Shown: positions 640 to 26,550 of the stretch, in pieces | How the letters are laid out: each line of letters begins with the position of its first letter | How positions within the stretch are numbered: position 1 is the stretch's first letter | NCBI GenBank assembly: GCA_015062385.1 | Contig: SUUT01000004.1 | Location: 8,433-72,432, forward strand | Source: Alphaproteobacteria bacterium | GTDB lineage: Bacteria; Pseudomonadota; Alphaproteobacteria; CAAHEQ01; UBA3637 | DNA length: 64,000 bases | Direction of reading: 5' to 3' | Position numbers and translations under genes: made by a program | The notes under the pieces: model-generated | The model's database searches: none | What the model saw: the letters and a program-made list of their open reading frames with translations, nothing else | Told to the model about the DNA's origin: nothing

Positions 640-716
640 GGGTCTGTAGCGCAGTTGGTTAGAGCTGGCCGCTCATAACGGTCTGGTCGGGGGTTCGAGT
701 CCCTCCGGACCCACCA
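640..716 (+). tRNA. tRNA-Met (anticodon CAT; elongator-type, Ile2/lysidine not excluded)
   Basis: 77-nt cloverleaf with acceptor GGGTCTG/CGGACCC. The anticodon stem GGCCG/CGGTC carries loop CTCATAA. T-loop TTCGAGT and an encoded CCA are present. The G1-C72 pair argues against an initiator. Confidence 0.9.
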
Positions 717-1044
717 ATTATAAAAGTCTTATCAAAATTGATAAGACTTTTTATTTTGATATGGGATGTTCAATTCCAACATCAATTCATTTATGACTAC
801 CGTCATAATGCATTGTGTTTCATTGCGTTTCACTGCAAAACTCCGGCCACAGGCAGGTTTTTGCGGTGACGTCCTCTTTTTTTTGTGCCTTGATGAGGCC
901 TCAAAAGCCCATTGTTTGCGGGGTTTGTGAGATTCAGTGTTTCATTTATGATGTGAGCACTTTAACCACCGCTAAGAGATTTTTGATTGAAATTAAGAAA
1001 AATAGATACTTTTGGATTGACCTCGTCCAAATCAAAAAATGCCT
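711..1044 (+). repeat. Left copy of the ~334-bp direct repeat flanking island 1 (starts with the CCACCA end of tRNA-Met)
   Basis: Aligns end to end with 25527-25859, with scattered substitutions and 1-nt indels (roughly 90% identity by eye). Weaker similarity continues to ~1125 / ~25945. Confidence 0.85.
723..757 (+). terminator. Rho-independent terminator after tRNA-Met
   Basis: Stem AAAGTCTTATCA / TGATAAGACTTT with loop AAAT, followed by a T-rich run (TTTTTATTTT). Confidence 0.7.
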
Positions 1045-1133
1045 AATTTAGGTGCTTTTCTCTATCCTCAACCTCGCACCCTATATCCATCACCAGACTA
1101 CAGTTGCGAACCCCAGGCCACTTGGGAGGGATA

Positions 1134-2370
1134 CTAACAAACATCTTTTGTTATTTCTTCAAATTCTTTTTTTTGTTTTCTTGGAATATCTTCAATTTCT
1201 GTTTCTGCATAATATTTTTTCATGTCATCATAAAAATCCGTTGAGAAACAAAGTCCTTGGGCAACTAAAAGTCTTTTCGGGTCAATTGATTCAGAAGTAT
1301 GTATATATTGTGTATCTGGTAATAAAATATTTCTATACCCTTTAAAACCTCTATGACTTAATTGTTTTATTAAAATATCACGTTCATAATTATAAATTAC
1401 CTCTTTATATGCTTTTATATAAGAACCACCGCCACAGATAATTAGAGGCAAATAGCTTTCCCATTCATCTGCATTAGGATCTCTATTTATTTTTGTTCTC
1501 CATATTACTCTACCAAGTTGTTTAAAGAAGCTTTTTTCTATATTCCCTTTATTTGTTGCTTCATAGTATCTGTCAGCACCAAGTTCCAATACAGATGATT
1601 TAAAGAATGAATAAATATCTGCAGATTCATTTCGATGAATTCTGAAGGTACAGATGTCCGTTGTTCCTGCGCCTATATCTATTGCACAATACAAACCTTG
1701 TGCAGCAGAATCTTCTTGTGTTACAAAAGATGAAACAGCCGCAACAATCTCTGGAATAACTGAATACTCTATATCAGGATCGGAATTACCAATCTTTTTA
1801 TAATTGTTTAAATCTATCTTTGATTTTTTTGACAAATTATATGCTATTTTAAGAAGGTTTAAATATTTTTTATTATCTCCTGTAGAACTAAATTTAGCAG
1901 ATGGAATTCCCATTATTAATTGACCATATGATTTCTTTGTTTTTCATAAAGTCTCTATTGCTATATTTTTTTACAAACCATTCTTTAGAATATTGTATAA
2001 CAAGAGCAATAAATACCCTTAGGTAATCTGCTGAGTTTTCTTCGTTATTCATAAAATTTACTTTTAGATTTTCTAAAATTTTCTGTTTATGAGTTTTCTC
2101 ACTAATAGAAACCTTTGAAAATTTACTTGCCAACCGTTCAAAAAAATTAGGAATTTCTTGTTCTATTCTATATAGAGGCAACTCAAATTGTTTCGTTTCA
2201 AGATTTATAGCGAGTTTTGTAGGAAGTAGGTAAGTTGCATCTTCGGTTTTATCTTTTTCGAAGTCCACAACAAAAAAACTATCATCTGCAAAAAGAGGAT
2301 GTATCACAACTTTAGTAGTTGATGTTCCTATATCCAAACCAATACATAAATCTAAAATTTCTTTTTCCAT
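1134..2370 (-). pseudogene. Hsp70/actin-like (ASKHA) ATPase, split by a frameshift near 1894-1950
   Basis: ORFs 1894-2370 and 1134-1913 overlap by 20 nt in different frames. Phosphate-1 motif GLDIGTSTTKV lies in the first ORF; phosphate-2 AIDIGAGTTDI and adenosine motif IICGGGS lie in the second. The start is 3 nt after the SNF2 stop. Confidence 0.55.
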
Positions 2371-2373
2371 TTG

Positions 2374-5300
2374 TTATTCCACTTTTAAAAGGACCATACA
2401 AATATCATCTTTATCATAGATAAGTTGTTTGTTTTTTTCTATGTTTTCTAGTTTCAATAATAGATTAGATTCCATTTTTCGGAATTTTCCCTCGTTTGCA
2501 GGTATCATTTTTTCTTTATGTTCACTGATAAGTTTTTCGCGTAGCATATTAAATTTGTTACGTTTATCTTCTAAGTGATTTTCAATTGTCTTTTTCTGTA
2601 ATTCAGCACGATCGAAGTTTTTATTTTCTATTTTTTGAATTTCTTCATCATATTTTTCCTCATTTATTCCTAGAATTTCCGACGCTAAAGTTTCAAGTTC
2701 TTGATAATTAATTCCACCACGATCCGTCCAATCCAGTCCATCAGAGACAGCATTCAATATTAATTCCTCAGATAAATCATCTGAAATCGTCTCTTTTGAA
2801 TGTAAATCATATCCTGAGTATAGTATTTTAGCATAATGAGTTATTCCCTGGGCAGATACAAATGAAGCGCCAATTAAATATTCCCCTTTATTTTCTCCTT
2901 TAATACGTATGGCCGCACAAGGATATGTTGAAAAATCAATGTCTTTTATTTTTTCACGTAAAAATTTAATGATAGGATGTGTCTGATTTATAATTTCTGA
3001 ATTAGGAGATGATGCTGTTATTTTATTATTAAAAGAACATATTATATTTGAATAGTTTTGTAATATTTTAGAGTGAGAACCATACCCATTTCGTTCACAG
3101 AACTGCGAAAAATCACTGGCAAAACTAACGGGAAATGAAATAGTGTATTCATTTTCATTGTGTGTTTTACTAGATAATACTGTCGGATAAAGCTTTCTTA
3201 TCGTTCTAAGAACATAAGAAGATAAATCTTTTGCTGTGATTTTTTTTCCTTGTTCTGCTTGTATTCGTTCCAAAATGTAATCACCATATGCAGCAAGTTC
3301 AGCCGCACTGCTTTCTAATTTTTCATTTTCAATTTTTTTATTTATAATAGCTCGTTCAGTCTGCTCGATCTTTTTGCTTTGTTCTTCAGGTGACAATAGT
3401 AATAAGTTTAATGATAATTGCTTAAACATATCGCCAAGAACGACTTCAAAATCGCCTAAAACACTGGTACAAATATTGAATTTTGTATATAGTTTTTCAT
3501 AAATTCTAGCATCAATAGTACTATCGTGAAATAAATTCCATATGAGTATTTTATCAGATTTTTGTCCTATACGATCAAGACGGCCTATACGTTGTTCAAC
3601 TCTCATTGGATTCCATGGAAGATCATAGTTTATAAGTAAGCGACAGAACTGTAAATCTACACCTTCACTACCAACTTCAGATGCCAATAGTATTTTGATA
3701 TTTTCATCTTTTTGGAATTTGGATAATACTTCATCTTTACTTTTAACTTTTCCAGTTAAAAGTATAGAATCTATATTATGTTCATGTAATCTTGTATGTA
3801 AATATTCCAGAGTAGGTATGAAAGAAGAAAACAATACAATTTTTTCATCATGATACTTTGCTTGCATATCTTTTATTGTTTCTAAAAGTCTTTCAAATTT
3901 GGTATCATTTTTGAGCAATTCTTTTTCATACTTGAATTTTGATATTTTGTCGTATATGGCTCTCATAAAGTCACTAGGCAGTTTTTCTTCATCTATGTTT
4001 TCTATATCTTCATTATAGATATTCGCATTTTTTTCTTTCCAAGATTGTAAAGTTGAATATAAACAACTTGTTAACATTCGTTGCGGTTGACATAATAGAA
4101 AAAGGGTAAAACCAGGACCAGCTCCCATAACATTATTTTCAGCGTACTCATGAATAGATTTAGTAACTGTATCATATAATTCTTGTTCATATATACTCAT
4201 TTCTATTTTTTCAGGAATTGCTTCTCGAACAGCTCTGAATTCATGAACATCTCTTTTTCTTGTTCGATTATATATGTATCCAATGGAATTTATTTCATCT
4301 AATTCATATGCAATTTCTTGTGATTCTTTGAGCCCTATGGGAGCTTGTTTTTTCTTAAGTTTTTGAATAAGGCTTTCTAATTGTTTGCTATCCCTCATTA
4401 TACCAAAATGATCTGAAGCTTGAATATCTTCTAAAGCTTCTATAACTTCATCATTATTTAAATGAGAAGAAATTAATCTTTTTCGTAATTGAACTAATTG
4501 TTCATTGTTTTTTAGCATTCTATCAAAATATTCTTGGATGGGAAAATGATCTTCGTCTAGTATATTAACCAAAGAGAATAGGTCATCCGTTTTATTTTGA
4601 ATTGGAGTTGCAGATAGAAAAACAGCATAATCAGAAATTTTTCTTAAGAGGTTAGCGCACTTATGAGCTCTTGTTTCTGAATTTCTTAGATAATGAGCCT
4701 CATCTATAATAAGCATGTCAATTAGTTCTTTATCATCTTCATAGTATTTTGCTAGTTCTGCTTGTATTTGTTCGGAAGCCATTCCTTGCATGCTACAAAT
4801 TAAAGCAAAATCCTCATCTGAGTTTATTCTTTTAACAGCATCAGATGCTTTGACAATTTCTGCTTTTACACCAATTTTATTTCGTAATTCTACACGCCAT
4901 TTTTCACTTAAAACTTTTGAGCAAACAATAAATAATCTTTTAAAATCATATCGTTGTTTTAATTCAGTCCATATAAGTCCGGCTTCAATTGTTTTACCTA
5001 AACCAACTTCATCGGCAATTAAAATTGAATTAGATGGAGAGTTTATAATTTTACATACTGGTTTAAATTGATACGCATAAAAATCTGTGTTAGTAACATC
5101 CATACTATATATGATATTACTAAGATTTCCATTGATTCTTGTTTGTGTTATAACTTGGCGAACATCGTTAGCTGATGAGAATTTATTCATGCCAATTAAA
5201 TCCGGTAATGTATAACTTTCTATTGTTTGTTGTAATTCTAGTTGATCTTCAGGAATTTGTTGTAAGATACCATTATTAAATTTGATGGGCCAAATTGTTC

Positions 5301-5388
5301 TGTTTAATCTTATTTTTGAGGTACCATGAATTGTTCCAATTTTAGATGGATTTGATTTTAAAACAACAACATCTCCAATATTAAACAT
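2374..5388 (-). CDS. SNF2-family helicase/ATPase (1004 aa) with small N-terminal beta-rich domain and ~350-aa C-terminal extension
   Basis: Motifs are ADEVGLGKT (I), LIIDEAHYLRN (II), LSATP (III), and GSEGVDLQ plus WNPMRVEQRIGRLDRIGQ (V/VI). An AAGGA RBS lies 7 nt before the ATG at 5388. Confidence 0.85.
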   Translation of the reverse strand: MFNIGDVVVLKSNPSKIGTIHGTSKIRLNRTIWPIKFNNGILQQIPEDQLELQQTIESYTLPDLIGMNKFSSANDVRQVITQTRINGNLSNIIYSMDVTNTDFYAYQFKPVCKIINSPSNSILIADEVGLGKTIEAGLIWTELKQRYDFKRLFIVCSKVLSEKWRVELRNKIGVKAEIVKASDAVKRINSDEDFALICSMQGMASEQIQAELAKYYEDDKELIDMLIIDEAHYLRNSETRAHKCANLLRKISDYAVFLSATPIQNKTDDLFSLVNILDEDHFPIQEYFDRMLKNNEQLVQLRKRLISSHLNNDEVIEALEDIQASDHFGIMRDSKQLESLIQKLKKKQAPIGLKESQEIAYELDEINSIGYIYNRTRKRDVHEFRAVREAIPEKIEMSIYEQELYDTVTKSIHEYAENNVMGAGPGFTLFLLCQPQRMLTSCLYSTLQSWKEKNANIYNEDIENIDEEKLPSDFMRAIYDKISKFKYEKELLKNDTKFERLLETIKDMQAKYHDEKIVLFSSFIPTLEYLHTRLHEHNIDSILLTGKVKSKDEVLSKFQKDENIKILLASEVGSEGVDLQFCRLLINYDLPWNPMRVEQRIGRLDRIGQKSDKILIWNLFHDSTIDARIYEKLYTKFNICTSVLGDFEVVLGDMFKQLSLNLLLLSPEEQSKKIEQTERAIINKKIENEKLESSAAELAAYGDYILERIQAEQGKKITAKDLSSYVLRTIRKLYPTVLSSKTHNENEYTISFPVSFASDFSQFCERNGYGSHSKILQNYSNIICSFNNKITASSPNSEIINQTHPIIKFLREKIKDIDFSTYPCAAIRIKGENKGEYLIGASFVSAQGITHYAKILYSGYDLHSKETISDDLSEELILNAVSDGLDWTDRGGINYQELETLASEILGINEEKYDEEIQKIENKNFDRAELQKKTIENHLEDKRNKFNMLREKLISEHKEKMIPANEGKFRKMESNLLLKLENIEKNKQLIYDKDDICMVLLKVE

Positions 5389-5546
5389 CTATTATCCTTG
5401 TTCAATTTAAGTTGATAGTAAATAAGCTATATAAGCATAACCCAAAGTTTTATAAATTACAAGGTTCTAGCACTATTTTTTCTTAGATTGACTGGACTTA
5501 TTCGTTTTTCTAAGCATTCATTGTCTTGTGACGAAAGGAGTTCATT

Positions 5547-5861
5547 ATGGAAACAGTTAAAGTTTATATGGTGCGAAAACCTTCGGATTTTGAAGAAGTA
5601 AAAACTTTATGCAAAAAGTATACGCATGAGGCCGAAGAGGTCTTAATTGAAGAAACTGTCAACCTACCACCAACTTGGTATGAGGAGTTTTGCCAACGCC
5701 CATTGGATAACTACATTTTCTTATCCAGTAAAGGCGGTTATGATGATACAGGCCACCGCAAAGTAGTTGCTATAAAATGCCTAGGCAAGCCAACGCTTTA
5801 TGTTGATCCTTCCGGTTCAAGCTATTGCCGATATATGGGAGTGGAAAATGAAGACCTATAA
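5547..5861 (+). CDS. Hypothetical small protein (104 aa), mobile-element type
   Basis: ATG is preceded by AAAGGAG. No family is recognised with confidence. The ORF overlaps the next small ORF. Confidence 0.45.
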   Translation: METVKVYMVRKPSDFEEVKTLCKKYTHEAEEVLIEETVNLPPTWYEEFCQRPLDNYIFLSSKGGYDDTGHRKVVAIKCLGKPTLYVDPSGSSYCRYMGVENEDL

Positions 5862-6060
5862 AGACATTCCACCTAATCACAAAATCAGCATGCCGATGGT
5901 TTATAACCACGCAATCAGAGTACTTGATAGACTGGATAGACGACTGAGCAGACTTAACATCCCAGCGCTACCAATTAAATATAAATACGAAATCAATCGT
6001 CTTGCACATAAACTGGAACAAATGGTCGCTAAATACAAAGCCATTGAGAAGGAGTTGTAA
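5848..6060 (+). CDS. Hypothetical small protein (~70 aa)
   Basis: The internal ATG at 5848 has a GGAG RBS and overlaps the stop of the upstream ORF (translational coupling). The track ORF starts at 5800. Confidence 0.35.
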   Translation: MKTYKDIPPNHKISMPMVYNHAIRVLDRLDRRLSRLNIPALPIKYKYEINRLAHKLEQMVAKYKAIEKEL

Positions 6061-6111: not shown

Positions 6112-6684
6112 TTATTGAATTTGTCTTAACGATATATTGTAATCGTATGATGTTATAACAACTCTGTTAATTTTAATATATTTACCAAAATCTTTATCTG
6201 TGTTTTTTAATTTATCATTTATGGTTTCTTGTAAATTATTTAAATTAAGGAATCCTGTTTGTTTAGTATCTAAGAAACATTTTGATAATAGTAAGTGCAC
6301 CTGATTTGACACAAAGAGATATAATGGGTTTATTTGATTATTAAAATCATTATTTAGTTCATAAATTACTTTAGGGTCTATTATACGAAATTCTACTTGA
6401 GTATCAACTACAACGTTATAAGGTACAGTTTTAATATTATTACATCCAAAAGAGTGGGCTGTGCTATTAAAAGTTTGACAGCGTATATCAACAATATCAA
6501 AAGTTTGAAAAAAAGGAAATTTCCAACAAAACCTCTCACCATTTTCATAAATTTTAGTCGGTTTTCCACATGTTTTTTTTATAATATTAAAACCTTCATG
6601 TCTAAAATATAGTGGCCATATATATTCCAGGATAGTATTCCAAAATTTTAATATTAATTCCGCAAAACTTAGTGTATTATCCAT
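6112..6684 (-). CDS. SPFH/Band-7 (prohibitin-like) domain protein
   Basis: The pattern ...FPFFQTFDIVDIRCQTF...VVVDTQVEFRIIDPKVIY resembles the SPFH core (Pf..v..vd.r.q ... v.vd..v.yrI.dp). The ATG at 6684 has a GAGGTG RBS; the track ORF starts at a TTG at 6699. Confidence 0.45.
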   Translation of the reverse strand: MDNTLSFAELILKFWNTILEYIWPLYFRHEGFNIIKKTCGKPTKIYENGERFCWKFPFFQTFDIVDIRCQTFNSTAHSFGCNNIKTVPYNVVVDTQVEFRIIDPKVIYELNNDFNNQINPLYLFVSNQVHLLLSKCFLDTKQTGFLNLNNLQETINDKLKNTDKDFGKYIKINRVVITSYDYNISLRQIQ

Positions 6685-6712
6685 ATTTTCACCTCTCAAC
6701 GTATTCTTTATC

Positions 6713-7171
6713 TTACAATTTCAAATACTTCAAAAACGCATCACAACCTTCAACGATATCCCAATAGGTTTCATCAAAGTTACCGGTGTACCAAGGGTCT
6801 TTGATATTGCGGGGCTTATTTGCAAAATCTAGCAAGCGATGAATTTTATTATCCGTATCCACGCCAACGATAGATTGAATATCTTCAACATTACTATCAT
6901 CCATCGCTAAGATATAATCATAATACGCATAATCAGATGGCCGAATACGACGAGAATAATGTTCTTCAAAAGGAACGTGCATAGATTTCAACATCTCATG
7001 CGTACCATAGTGAATACCGGCATGACACATTTCATTATATCCCTCGGTGGCGGCAGAATCAATTTCAAACCGGTCAGCTAAACCGCTTTCCTCAACCATT
7101 TGCTTAAACACAAACTGCGCCATCGGCGACCGACAAATATTCCCTAAACATACAAACAGAACTTTAATCAT
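6713..7171 (-). CDS. Low-molecular-weight protein-tyrosine phosphatase (ArsC-like fold)
   Basis: P-loop VLFVCLGNICRSPMA (CX5R-S) lies at the N-terminus and the DP acid loop (IKDPWY) near the C-terminus. The start is 2-12 nt after the HNH stop. Confidence 0.85.
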   Translation of the reverse strand: MIKVLFVCLGNICRSPMAQFVFKQMVEESGLADRFEIDSAATEGYNEMCHAGIHYGTHEMLKSMHVPFEEHYSRRIRPSDYAYYDYILAMDDSNVEDIQSIVGVDTDNKIHRLLDFANKPRNIKDPWYTGNFDETYWDIVEGCDAFLKYLKL

Positions 7172-7182
7172 GATTTCCAATA

Positions 7183-25526: not shown

Positions 25527-25859
25527 CCACCAATTATAAAAGTCTTATCAAAATTGATAAGACTTTTTATTTTGATATGGGATGTTCAATTCCAACATCA
25601 ATTCGTTTATGACTACCGTCATAACGCATTGTGTTTCATTGCGTCTCACCGCAAAACTCCGGCCACAGGCAGGTTTTTGCGGTACCGTCCTCTTTTTTTG
25701 TGTCCTTGATGAGGCCTCAAAAGCCCATTGTCTGCGGGGTTTGTGAGATTCTGTATTTCATTTATGATGTGAACATATGAGTCACTGCTAAGCGATTTTT
25801 TATTAAAAACACGAAAAATAGATATTTTTAGATTGACCTTGTCCAAATCAAAAATGCCT
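25527..25859 (+). repeat. Right copy of the ~334-bp direct repeat flanking island 1
   Basis: Begins CCACCAATTATAAAAG..., the same as the tRNA-Met 3' end plus its terminator hairpin. It is collinear with 711-1044. Confidence 0.85.
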
Positions 25860-26550
25860 TTTGGGGGAGGTTTTTCTTAATCCCTTATCTCATATCATCA
25901 ATCATTCATCAGAGTAAAGCCTAAGAACTCATGACCACTTGTGTAGTAATTTGCCAAACAATAGTGACAAAGTAGGACTGTTTCGTTTGCCATTTAATAC
26001 AGTGTTAAAAATATCATTTGATGAGATGATATTGAATAACGTCATAGAAGATTTCAGTTTTAACCATCAATGCTACCAAAATATCTTCGATTGATTTATC
26101 TGTATGATTCAATAGTGTTTTTAATATCTTAGTTAAATGACTGTTTTATGAAAGTTTATTTCGAACAATCAAAGTCAGATGTTTTATCATTTGTAGCTGA
26201 CGAATCGAAGTTAGAATTATGAAGTGCAGAATTTTCAGTAATATTACTCAGTTACTAAAAAGATGTGATTGTGAATAAAATTATATTTATTGTATGAGTG
26301 AAAAGAATGGAAGATGAGACTAAAAAATAATTTTAGAAAACTATAGAGGATATAAAAATGAAAAAGCGTTTTGGTTCAATGACTTAACTTTATTAATAAG
26401 GAAAATAATGTCGGAGAATCTTCTATGTTAGATACTTTAAATATATTTTTTAATGAAAAAGAATATGAATTGAGTTTTGATAATTTTTGTAAAATACCAG
26501 CTATTATTCTGCTTAATTTAAAATTTCTTTTGAGAAAAAGATAAAACGGC
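25860..26550. other. Gene-free AT-rich segment, probable decayed island remnant
   Basis: No ORF of 60 aa or more on either strand. The first ~85 bp are still weakly similar to 1045-1130. Confidence 0.35.

Follow-up and report, generated by a model that had tools for sequence, protein, structure and literature searches.

RapA (HepA) is a housekeeping protein of Escherichia coli, the Swi2/Snf2 recycling factor associated with RNA polymerase. DrmD is reportedly the SNF2 helicase of class 1 DISARM, as described by Ofir et al. in 2018. RapA-like helicases also act in multi-gene anti-phage systems, as ArmA in ARMADA and BrxHII in BREX (PMC13463889, PMC12458937). In DISARM, ARMADA and BREX, these Snf2 motors are essential parts, yet their mechanism is unexplained. 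We analysed a stretch of 64,000 nucleotides from an alphaproteobacterium (contig SUUT01000004.1, positions 8,433 to 72,432; hereafter referred to as the window), in which an SNF2 helicase gene related to drmD is directly followed by a gene for an ATPase of the ASKHA (Hsp70/actin) fold. This pair very probably constitutes a conserved unit of two co-inherited genes, distinct from DISARM. It was not found described in the full-text literature searched, a corpus that includes the CoCoNuT and YprA/ARMADA surveys and mostly excludes subscription journals; nor did the databases searched give it a name, in agreement with the original prediction, in which the pair was presented as a candidate defence module matching no named system.

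Both genes lie on the minus strand, the SNF2 gene at 2374-5388 and the ASKHA gene at 1134-2370. As originally noted, the ASKHA start codon comes three nucleotides after the SNF2 stop codon (TAA, CAA, ATG; spacer 2371-2373), and a GTGGA sequence is located about 8-10 nucleotides 5' of this ATG, within the 3' end of the SNF2 gene. We infer that the two genes are translationally linked. The SNF2 gene itself is preceded by a 49-nucleotide leader (5389-5437), with AAGGA 7-8 nucleotides before its ATG. The pair was present at all 19 loci examined, 13 of which were reached via the ATPase, four via the helicase and two on plasmids. On the ATPase side, a full-length SNF2 homologue (30-99% identity) was found directly upstream at each of the 13 loci with enough upstream sequence, and on one short contig (L012) the 3' end of the helicase gene was still visible upstream of the ASKHA gene. 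Conversely, four helicase homologues (36-37% identity), picked solely for their long contigs, all had directly downstream an ASKHA gene matching no Pfam family and matching the ATPase profile with E-values of 1e-100 to 1e-121. The two plasmids, pAA03 of Aminobacter aminovorans KCTC 2477 (WP_067969856.1 and WP_157097306.1) and pCHL69-1 of Cyanobacterium sp. HL-69 (AUC62497 and AUC62498), come from cultured bacteria, and their pairs are annotated in RefSeq/GenBank as “helicase-related protein” or “SNF2 family helicase” plus “hypothetical protein”. Thus, the survey of homologues called for by the original prediction yielded consistent pairing. Intergenic spacing at 16 loci besides the window ranged from -41 to +74 nucleotides. 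An all-against-all comparison of the neighbouring open reading frames (ORFs) at 13 loci revealed no third conserved gene. The pairwise identities of the SNF2 and ASKHA proteins were strongly correlated over 17 loci (r = 0.97; r = 0.93 for pairs with less than 60% identity), and both genes are under purifying selection, with ratios of nonsynonymous to synonymous substitution rates (dN/dS) of 0.07 for SNF2 and 0.15 for ASKHA.

The SNF2 gene is intact and encodes a RapA/DrmD-like protein of 1004 amino acids. Matches above the cut-off were obtained for SNF2-rel_dom (PF00176, 77.9 bits) and Helicase_C (PF00271, 71.2 bits), and the protein has the two RecA lobes and motifs I (GxGKT), II (DExH), III and VI of the Swi2/Snf2 group. 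Its DEVGLGKT, DEAH, SATP and QRIGRLDRIGQ motifs all correspond to invariant columns of the family alignment (n = 34 sequences). The ORF coordinates, Pfam matches and invariant motifs therefore sustain the original description of a 1004-residue ATPase with all its motifs intact. The NCBIfam model DISARM_DrmD (NF038317) aligned with residues 53-987 (model positions 56-990 of 1021), but with a score of 378.4 bits against a cut-off of 610. A full-length match was obtained with the PADLOC model PDLC02623 (“DrmD”; 734 bits, E = 7e-221). The helicase thus resembles DrmD in full-length colinearity and in its RapA-like architecture. Among 401 genomes of the phylum, NF038317 identified seven with scores of 838-1366 bits, six of which had a DUF1998 gene 5-11 kb from the gene encoding DrmD. 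The next tier below these true DrmD proteins, at 378-445 bits over the full length, consisted of exactly the six ASKHA-positive genomes, including that of the window. No DUF1998 (PF09369) was found in the window's own genome (99% complete), or anywhere in four of the five other ASKHA-positive genomes. In the fifth (G380), DUF1998 occurs only in a gene for a 2140-residue helicase about 14 kb from the pair, which we regard as part of another system within that island. This locus (L029; G380 contig 1, 192072-212000) is a large helicase-rich defence island, in which the DUF1998 helicase is Druantia/ARMADA-like and the pair lies beside a second SNF2-like gene.

Three true DrmD proteins matched PDLC02621 and related models, but not PDLC02623, whereas two ASKHA-linked helicases matched PDLC02623 only (E ≤ 1e-100 in each case). 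On these comparisons, the ASKHA-linked helicases form a family of their own, with DrmD as its nearest neighbour, and PDLC02623 in effect models this family. The neighbouring genes also differ: those of DrmD are drmMI-drmA-drmB-drmC, whereas the helicase of the window stands beside the ASKHA ATPase, and neither an adenine methylase (DrmMI) nor a phospholipase D-type nuclease (DrmC) was found within 11 kb of the pair. Membership of class 1 DISARM was rejected on the basis of the NF038317 score, the lack of DUF1998 in the genome and the lack of nearby DrmMI and DrmC genes. The original prediction had stated that DISARM does not fit. This was right for the system, given the missing DUF1998 and the score below the cut-off, but it overlooked how near the helicase stands to DrmD, whose closest relative it is. 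For annotation, orphan PADLOC “DrmD” calls (PDLC02623) made without the rest of DISARM may correspond to SNF2-ASKHA pairs. Calls with PDLC02572 likewise need care: this PADLOC model is labelled DrmA, yet true DrmD-type SNF2 proteins match it along their entire length (741-1576 bits), and it looks mislabelled.

The AlphaFold2 model of the helicase (predicted local distance difference test score, pLDDT, of 79) has three parts: an N-terminal beta-barrel of six short strands (residues ~7-52), the Snf2 core (residues ~100-650) and a C-terminal region (residues ~650-1004) that combines helices and an alpha/beta domain (738-883) with a 60-residue helical hairpin (895-987), and that ends in a strand. 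These results bear out the originally proposed small N-terminal domain and uncharacterised C-terminus of about 350 residues; the checks of the two termini identified the barrel at one and no known domain at the other. In a Foldseek search with this model, the top matches were to E. coli RapA (6bog and 8t0l; ~1000 aligned columns, E = 5e-32 to 3e-30, template modelling (TM) scores of 0.42-0.49), which was far ahead of every eukaryotic remodeller and was also the top PDB match by sequence. RapA likewise has an N-terminal beta-barrel ahead of the motor, and the model suggests that the helicase of the window is RapA-like across its entire length. Nevertheless, the two proteins are only 16-17% identical, and the gene in the window is an accessory gene carried on an island, with an ATPase gene as its partner. 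Identity with the housekeeping RapA was rejected: the NCBIfam model NF003426 scored 156.8 bits (cut-off 576), the gene is absent from all 20 congeners and another RapA-like gene is present in the genome. This second SNF2 gene (G000 contig 12, 116891-118765; 968 amino acids), which NF038317 matches over the core only (273 bits), is probably the housekeeping RapA. ArmA and BrxHII belong to the same helicase class, and the PADLOC BrxHI/BrxHII models gave 222 bits on the C-lobe of the window motor, but they are accompanied by a PglX-like methylase and YprA/DUF1998 helicases, or by other BREX genes, none of which is linked to the pair. The Hma system was also rejected, as HmaA matched only part of the motor (192 bits, versus 734 bits for PDLC02623) and there is no methylase with the pair.

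The partner gene is a pseudogene in the window, in which it is split into an upstream ORF of 158 amino acids (1894-2370, minus strand) containing GLDIGTSTTKV and a downstream ORF of 259 amino acids (1134-1913, minus strand) containing AIDIGAGTTDI and IICGGGS. Both halves match the family profile (E = 8e-53 and 2e-92, respectively), and intact homologues of 411 amino acids (91%, 85%, 84% identity and below) are continuous over the break (...IIWSINMGIPSAKF...). The AlphaFold2 model (pLDDT 86) comprises a nucleotide-binding domain and a tail of about 40-45 residues. The best Foldseek matches in the PDB were Hsp70 nucleotide-binding domains (Ssz1, DnaK) and MreB (probability 1.0, TM scores of ~0.45-0.5, 10-13% identity), and the model and these matches confirm the ASKHA fold, with its duplicated RNase-H-like lobes, that had been read from the three motifs. 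The phosphate-1, phosphate-2 and adenosine motifs of the superfamily are invariant in the family (D13, G15 and K20; D231, G233, T236 and D238; G313-G315), from which the partner is predicted to be ATPase-competent. The tail (residues ~367-411 of the member P0004) is of low model confidence yet conserved, with an EIEDI segment, about 12 variable residues and a terminal [YF][IV][ST]K[DE]M[CV] motif. It recalls the terminal EEVD peptide through which Hsp70 docks, and this conserved, apparently disordered tail is a possible docking peptide. A profile search of 1.84 billion representatives yielded 3373 clusters at E ≤ 1e-3, of which 1389 reached E ≤ 1e-30; the family therefore comprises at least 1389 clusters at 50% identity. 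It has no model in Pfam, NCBIfam or PHROGs, the sole exception being a weak match of one member to the partition protein family phrog_691. About a quarter of 202 members checked have an N-terminal extension of about 50 residues or more past the profile start (maximum 228), and the clade of the window has the minimal form.

The ASKHA partner shares with Hsp70 and actin proteins (DnaK, Ssz1, MreB, ParM and FtsA) the fold and the phosphate-1 (DIGTSTTK), phosphate-2 (DIGAGTTD) and adenosine (GGGS) motifs. Nevertheless, its distance from chaperones is the same as that from actins (~10-13% identity), and it has its own conserved C-terminal tail and no match to the Pfam HSP70, MreB or actin families. 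An Hsp70 chaperone proper was rejected, because there is no Pfam HSP70 match and the 411 residues correspond to the nucleotide-binding domain and tail, without a substrate-binding domain. There is a precedent for an Hsp70-fold ATPase in a defence operon in the Hsp70-like CnuD/CnuCD of type III CoCoNuT McrBC systems (PMC11090510). However, in the Hsp70-like proteins of CoCoNuT systems the substrate-binding domain is retained and the ATPase motifs are degenerate, and their partners are McrB GTPases rather than SNF2. The PADLOC candidate PDC-M61B provides a similar precedent, and is the only PADLOC model matched by the ASKHA ATPase (E = 1e-6 to 7e-9), over about 50 of 588 model positions near the phosphate-2 motif. 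PDC-M61 was not retained as a named relative because the match is limited to these ~50 residues; moreover, PDC-M61A was not among the best 25 of the 45 PADLOC matches of the window helicase, and PDC-M61B was not found in the 401 genomes. In the eukaryotic SWI/SNF, INO80 and SWR1 complexes, a Snf2-family motor works with actin/Arp ATPase subunits. The combination of a Snf2 motor with an actin-fold ATPase is similar, and by analogy the hairpin at 895-987 of the window motor could be a docking helix. This is an analogy only; the ASKHA partner shows no greater similarity to actin than to Hsp70.

The pair lies at the outer edge of a defence island, as originally proposed: it adjoins an Mza operon, and in a sister species the slot is taken by different cargo. 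Upstream of the pair, within 11 kb, are genes for an SPFH protein, a low-molecular-weight (LMW) phosphatase, an HNH nuclease, Dcm (C5 methylase), Vsr, MzaE, MzaD, MzaC and MzaB; downstream are tRNA-Met and carD, a locus found in 20 of 20 same-genus genomes. In a sister species of the same genus (G008), a related island occupies the same carD-tRNA-Met locus. The two islands are shared up to window position 1136 and again from ~5436-5438, and between these points G008 has a gene for a 148-residue DUF1810 protein in place of the ~4.3-kb segment of the window. This segment (1137-5437, minus strand; hereafter referred to as the cassette) behaves as an indel unit, present in the window and in L010, a contig of an uncultured alphaproteobacterium. 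As G008 holds DUF1810 in the same slot, the cassette can be considered exchangeable cargo of a defence hotspot. The rest of the G008 island (L048; G008 contig 8, 2544-13681) includes genes for an LMW phosphatase, a Ppl-type PHP + ATPase protein, a type I restriction-modification system (HsdR, S and M) and an AlbA_2/Schlafen-like protein. Elsewhere, the pair was found beside Hachiman, restriction enzymes and AbiEii (pAA03), a type I HsdR and GmrSD (L033), a methylase, a helicase and a MORC-like ATPase (HATPase; L030), type I S genes and recombinases (L004), Fic genes (one further locus) and toxin-antitoxin genes (pCHL69-1).

The distribution of the family is sporadic. It was found in none of 20 same-genus genomes and in five of 400 genomes of the phylum. 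A scan of 185,579 species genomes with a narrow pattern identified three loci, a pattern-dependent figure that understates a family of thousands of clusters by profile. Matches were found by tblastn in four of 72,556 plasmids and in none of 50,697 phage records, and a phage origin of the pair was rejected on the latter result. The window (872-6039) and L010 (3283-8450) are 97% identical over the cassette and its immediate flanks, but they are more divergent outside, with 88% identity for the LMW-phosphatase gene and 89% for tRNA-Met. This difference suggests that the cassette was recently transferred or recombined.

From the genomic company that the pair keeps, we consider it fairly probable that it serves to defend against mobile elements, and a swappable cassette encoding an autonomous defence module is the overall explanation towards which we lean. 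The SNF2-ASKHA pair would then be an autonomous anti-phage or anti-plasmid module, in which the ASKHA protein, bound to the motor, would serve as an ATP/ADP-dependent switch or sensor, with its tail as the candidate docking peptide. A cue from the invader would cause the switch to release the SNF2 translocase, and the released motor would act on the invader DNA, or on the RNA polymerase engaged on it, so that complexes of replication or transcription would be stripped off or stalled and DNA would not be cut. This specific gated-translocase mechanism is tentative, and we would sooner doubt it than rely on it. A still bolder version, which we regard as rather unlikely, would make the pair a prokaryotic counterpart of the Snf2-actin/Arp assemblies: an autonomous immune module free of nuclease and methylase, in which an obligate actin/Hsp70-fold ATPase would dock on a RapA/DrmD-type motor, perhaps through the ASKHA tail and the motor hairpin, and would gate it according to nucleotide state, so as to evict or stall the machinery of the invader. 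Here, the nearest relative of DrmD has one obligate partner, drawn from a large ATPase family without a name, and neither a methylase nor a YprA helicase nor a nuclease belongs to the pair. A defence role, if it holds, would make the pair a minimal system for learning what such motors do, and would add an Hsp70/actin-fold switch to the parts of bacterial immunity. It is credible that the cassette is a new variant on the theme of RapA/DrmD-like helicases in defence, with an undescribed partner family.

Several observations weigh against an autonomous defence module. The proposed role rests on guilt by association, and recognisable defence neighbours were not seen at three loci: L001 (beside mnmG), L031 and L008 (in a metal-resistance island). 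There is no nuclease, methyltransferase or other effector domain in the pair, and none is conserved beside it at the 13 loci compared. The C-terminal 355 residues of the helicase gave no Pfam or PDB sequence match in profile searches, and no nuclease motif was recognised in them. The correlated divergence of the two proteins partly reflects shared descent, and the broken copy in the window shows that the module is dispensable in that strain. One alternative is a non-autonomous accessory that boosts or licenses nearby restriction-type systems, with the motor delivering or clearing DNA for the nucleases of its neighbours. The pair is often found at the end of operons resembling restriction-modification systems (Mza with Dcm in the window, L033, L030 and pAA03), and the described relatives of the helicase (DrmD, ArmA and BrxHII) all belong to multi-gene systems with a methylase (PMC13463889, PMC12458937). 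However, the neighbouring systems vary from locus to locus and are missing from the three loci listed above, the 4.3-kb cassette moves as a whole, apart from the genes around it, and conservation does not extend to a third gene; an accessory of this type therefore seems improbable to us. We judge equally improbable a role other than defence, for the host or for a mobile element, in which a mobile RapA paralogue with a chaperone-like partner would recycle stalled RNA polymerase under stress, or the pair would ensure ParM-like partition or maintenance. The full-length structural similarity to RapA is consistent with the first of these functions, but the genome already has a separate RapA-like gene, and the sporadic distribution, with no occurrence in 20 congeners, also counts against such a role. 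For partition, the member P0004 weakly matches the phage “partition protein” phrog_691 (E = 6.5e-6) and pCBH ParM (E = 0.005), four plasmids have matches and some loci lie in resistance or mobile-element settings without defence genes. However, this similarity to ParM and phrog_691 is weak and local, other members of the family do not match phrog_691, no ParR-like small adaptor or other third gene is conserved, and the matches amount to only four of the 72,556 plasmids and no phage; ParMRC-type partition was rejected on these grounds. In the sister species, moreover, the same slot carries defence-island cargo, in keeping with a defence module.

The interruption of the ASKHA gene bears on whether the copy in the window still works. 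It is due to one extra base at ~1913 (site 1913-1915, minus strand), the window having AATAATGGG and relatives AATATGGG; L010, 97% identical, reads AAT-ATGGG against AATAATGGG. The original prediction had left open a sequencing artefact and had called for a check of reads around 1894-1950, which was carried out with Logan contigs, in which minority alleles are hidden. The extra base was reproduced, without differences, in contigs from four faecal-metagenome runs (X1-X4, 12-16x), which may include the sample from which the window was assembled. It was absent from contigs of four runs of other studies (X7, X8, X10 and X11; ~99% identical), in which the ASKHA gene is intact. As the extra base is carried by X1-X4 and lacking in X7, X8, X10, X11 and L010, the frameshift can be attributed to a strain-specific mutation and an assembly or sequencing artefact is ruled out. 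The lesion is young, since there are only 11 substitutions relative to L010 in 1236 nucleotides and no additional decay. In the AlphaFold2 model, the break comes midway along one of the core beta strands (residues 145-155), so the truncated product is almost certainly dead. The copy of the module in the window is most probably non-functional, as had been suspected, although the helicase gene remains intact. A copy still active despite the frameshift, through phase variation, programmed frameshifting or a functional split protein, is very improbable in our view. The downstream ORF does begin with an ATG exactly at codon M153, overlapping the upstream ORF by 20 nucleotides, and the undecayed flanks of the break would fit such a reading. 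However, the break lies within the core strand, the insertion site (AATAAT) is neither a homopolymer nor a known slippery motif, and the gene is uninterrupted in all the near-identical strains of the four other runs, as far as contigs, which cannot show minority variants, reveal. An inactivated copy of an otherwise conserved module therefore remains the preferred interpretation.

The remaining features of the locus lie outside the module. The tRNA-Met gene (640-716, plus strand) flanks the island. Two small overlapping ORFs without Pfam family (5547-5861 and 5800-6060, plus strand) are divergent from the SNF2 gene; they are unrelated to the gene upstream of the pair at L001, and were rejected as a third gene of the module. 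The ORF at 5547-5861 has a weak match to phrog_21303 (E = 1e-4), and is common to L010 and, in part, to G008, but not conserved at the other loci. A direct repeat of about 200 nucleotides (~88% identity) occurs just outside the ASKHA stop codon (843-1040) and again at 25662-25860, about 24.6 kb apart. The same sequence is found 3' of the ASKHA gene in L010 and is present in G008; it may bracket the island or mark recombination joints between cassettes. Finally, the cassette is separated from the HNH/Mza operon by the SPFH-like and LMW-phosphatase genes (6112-7180). The related islands of L010 and G008 also contain the LMW-phosphatase gene (88% identity), and at L008 an LMWPc gene lies near the pair.

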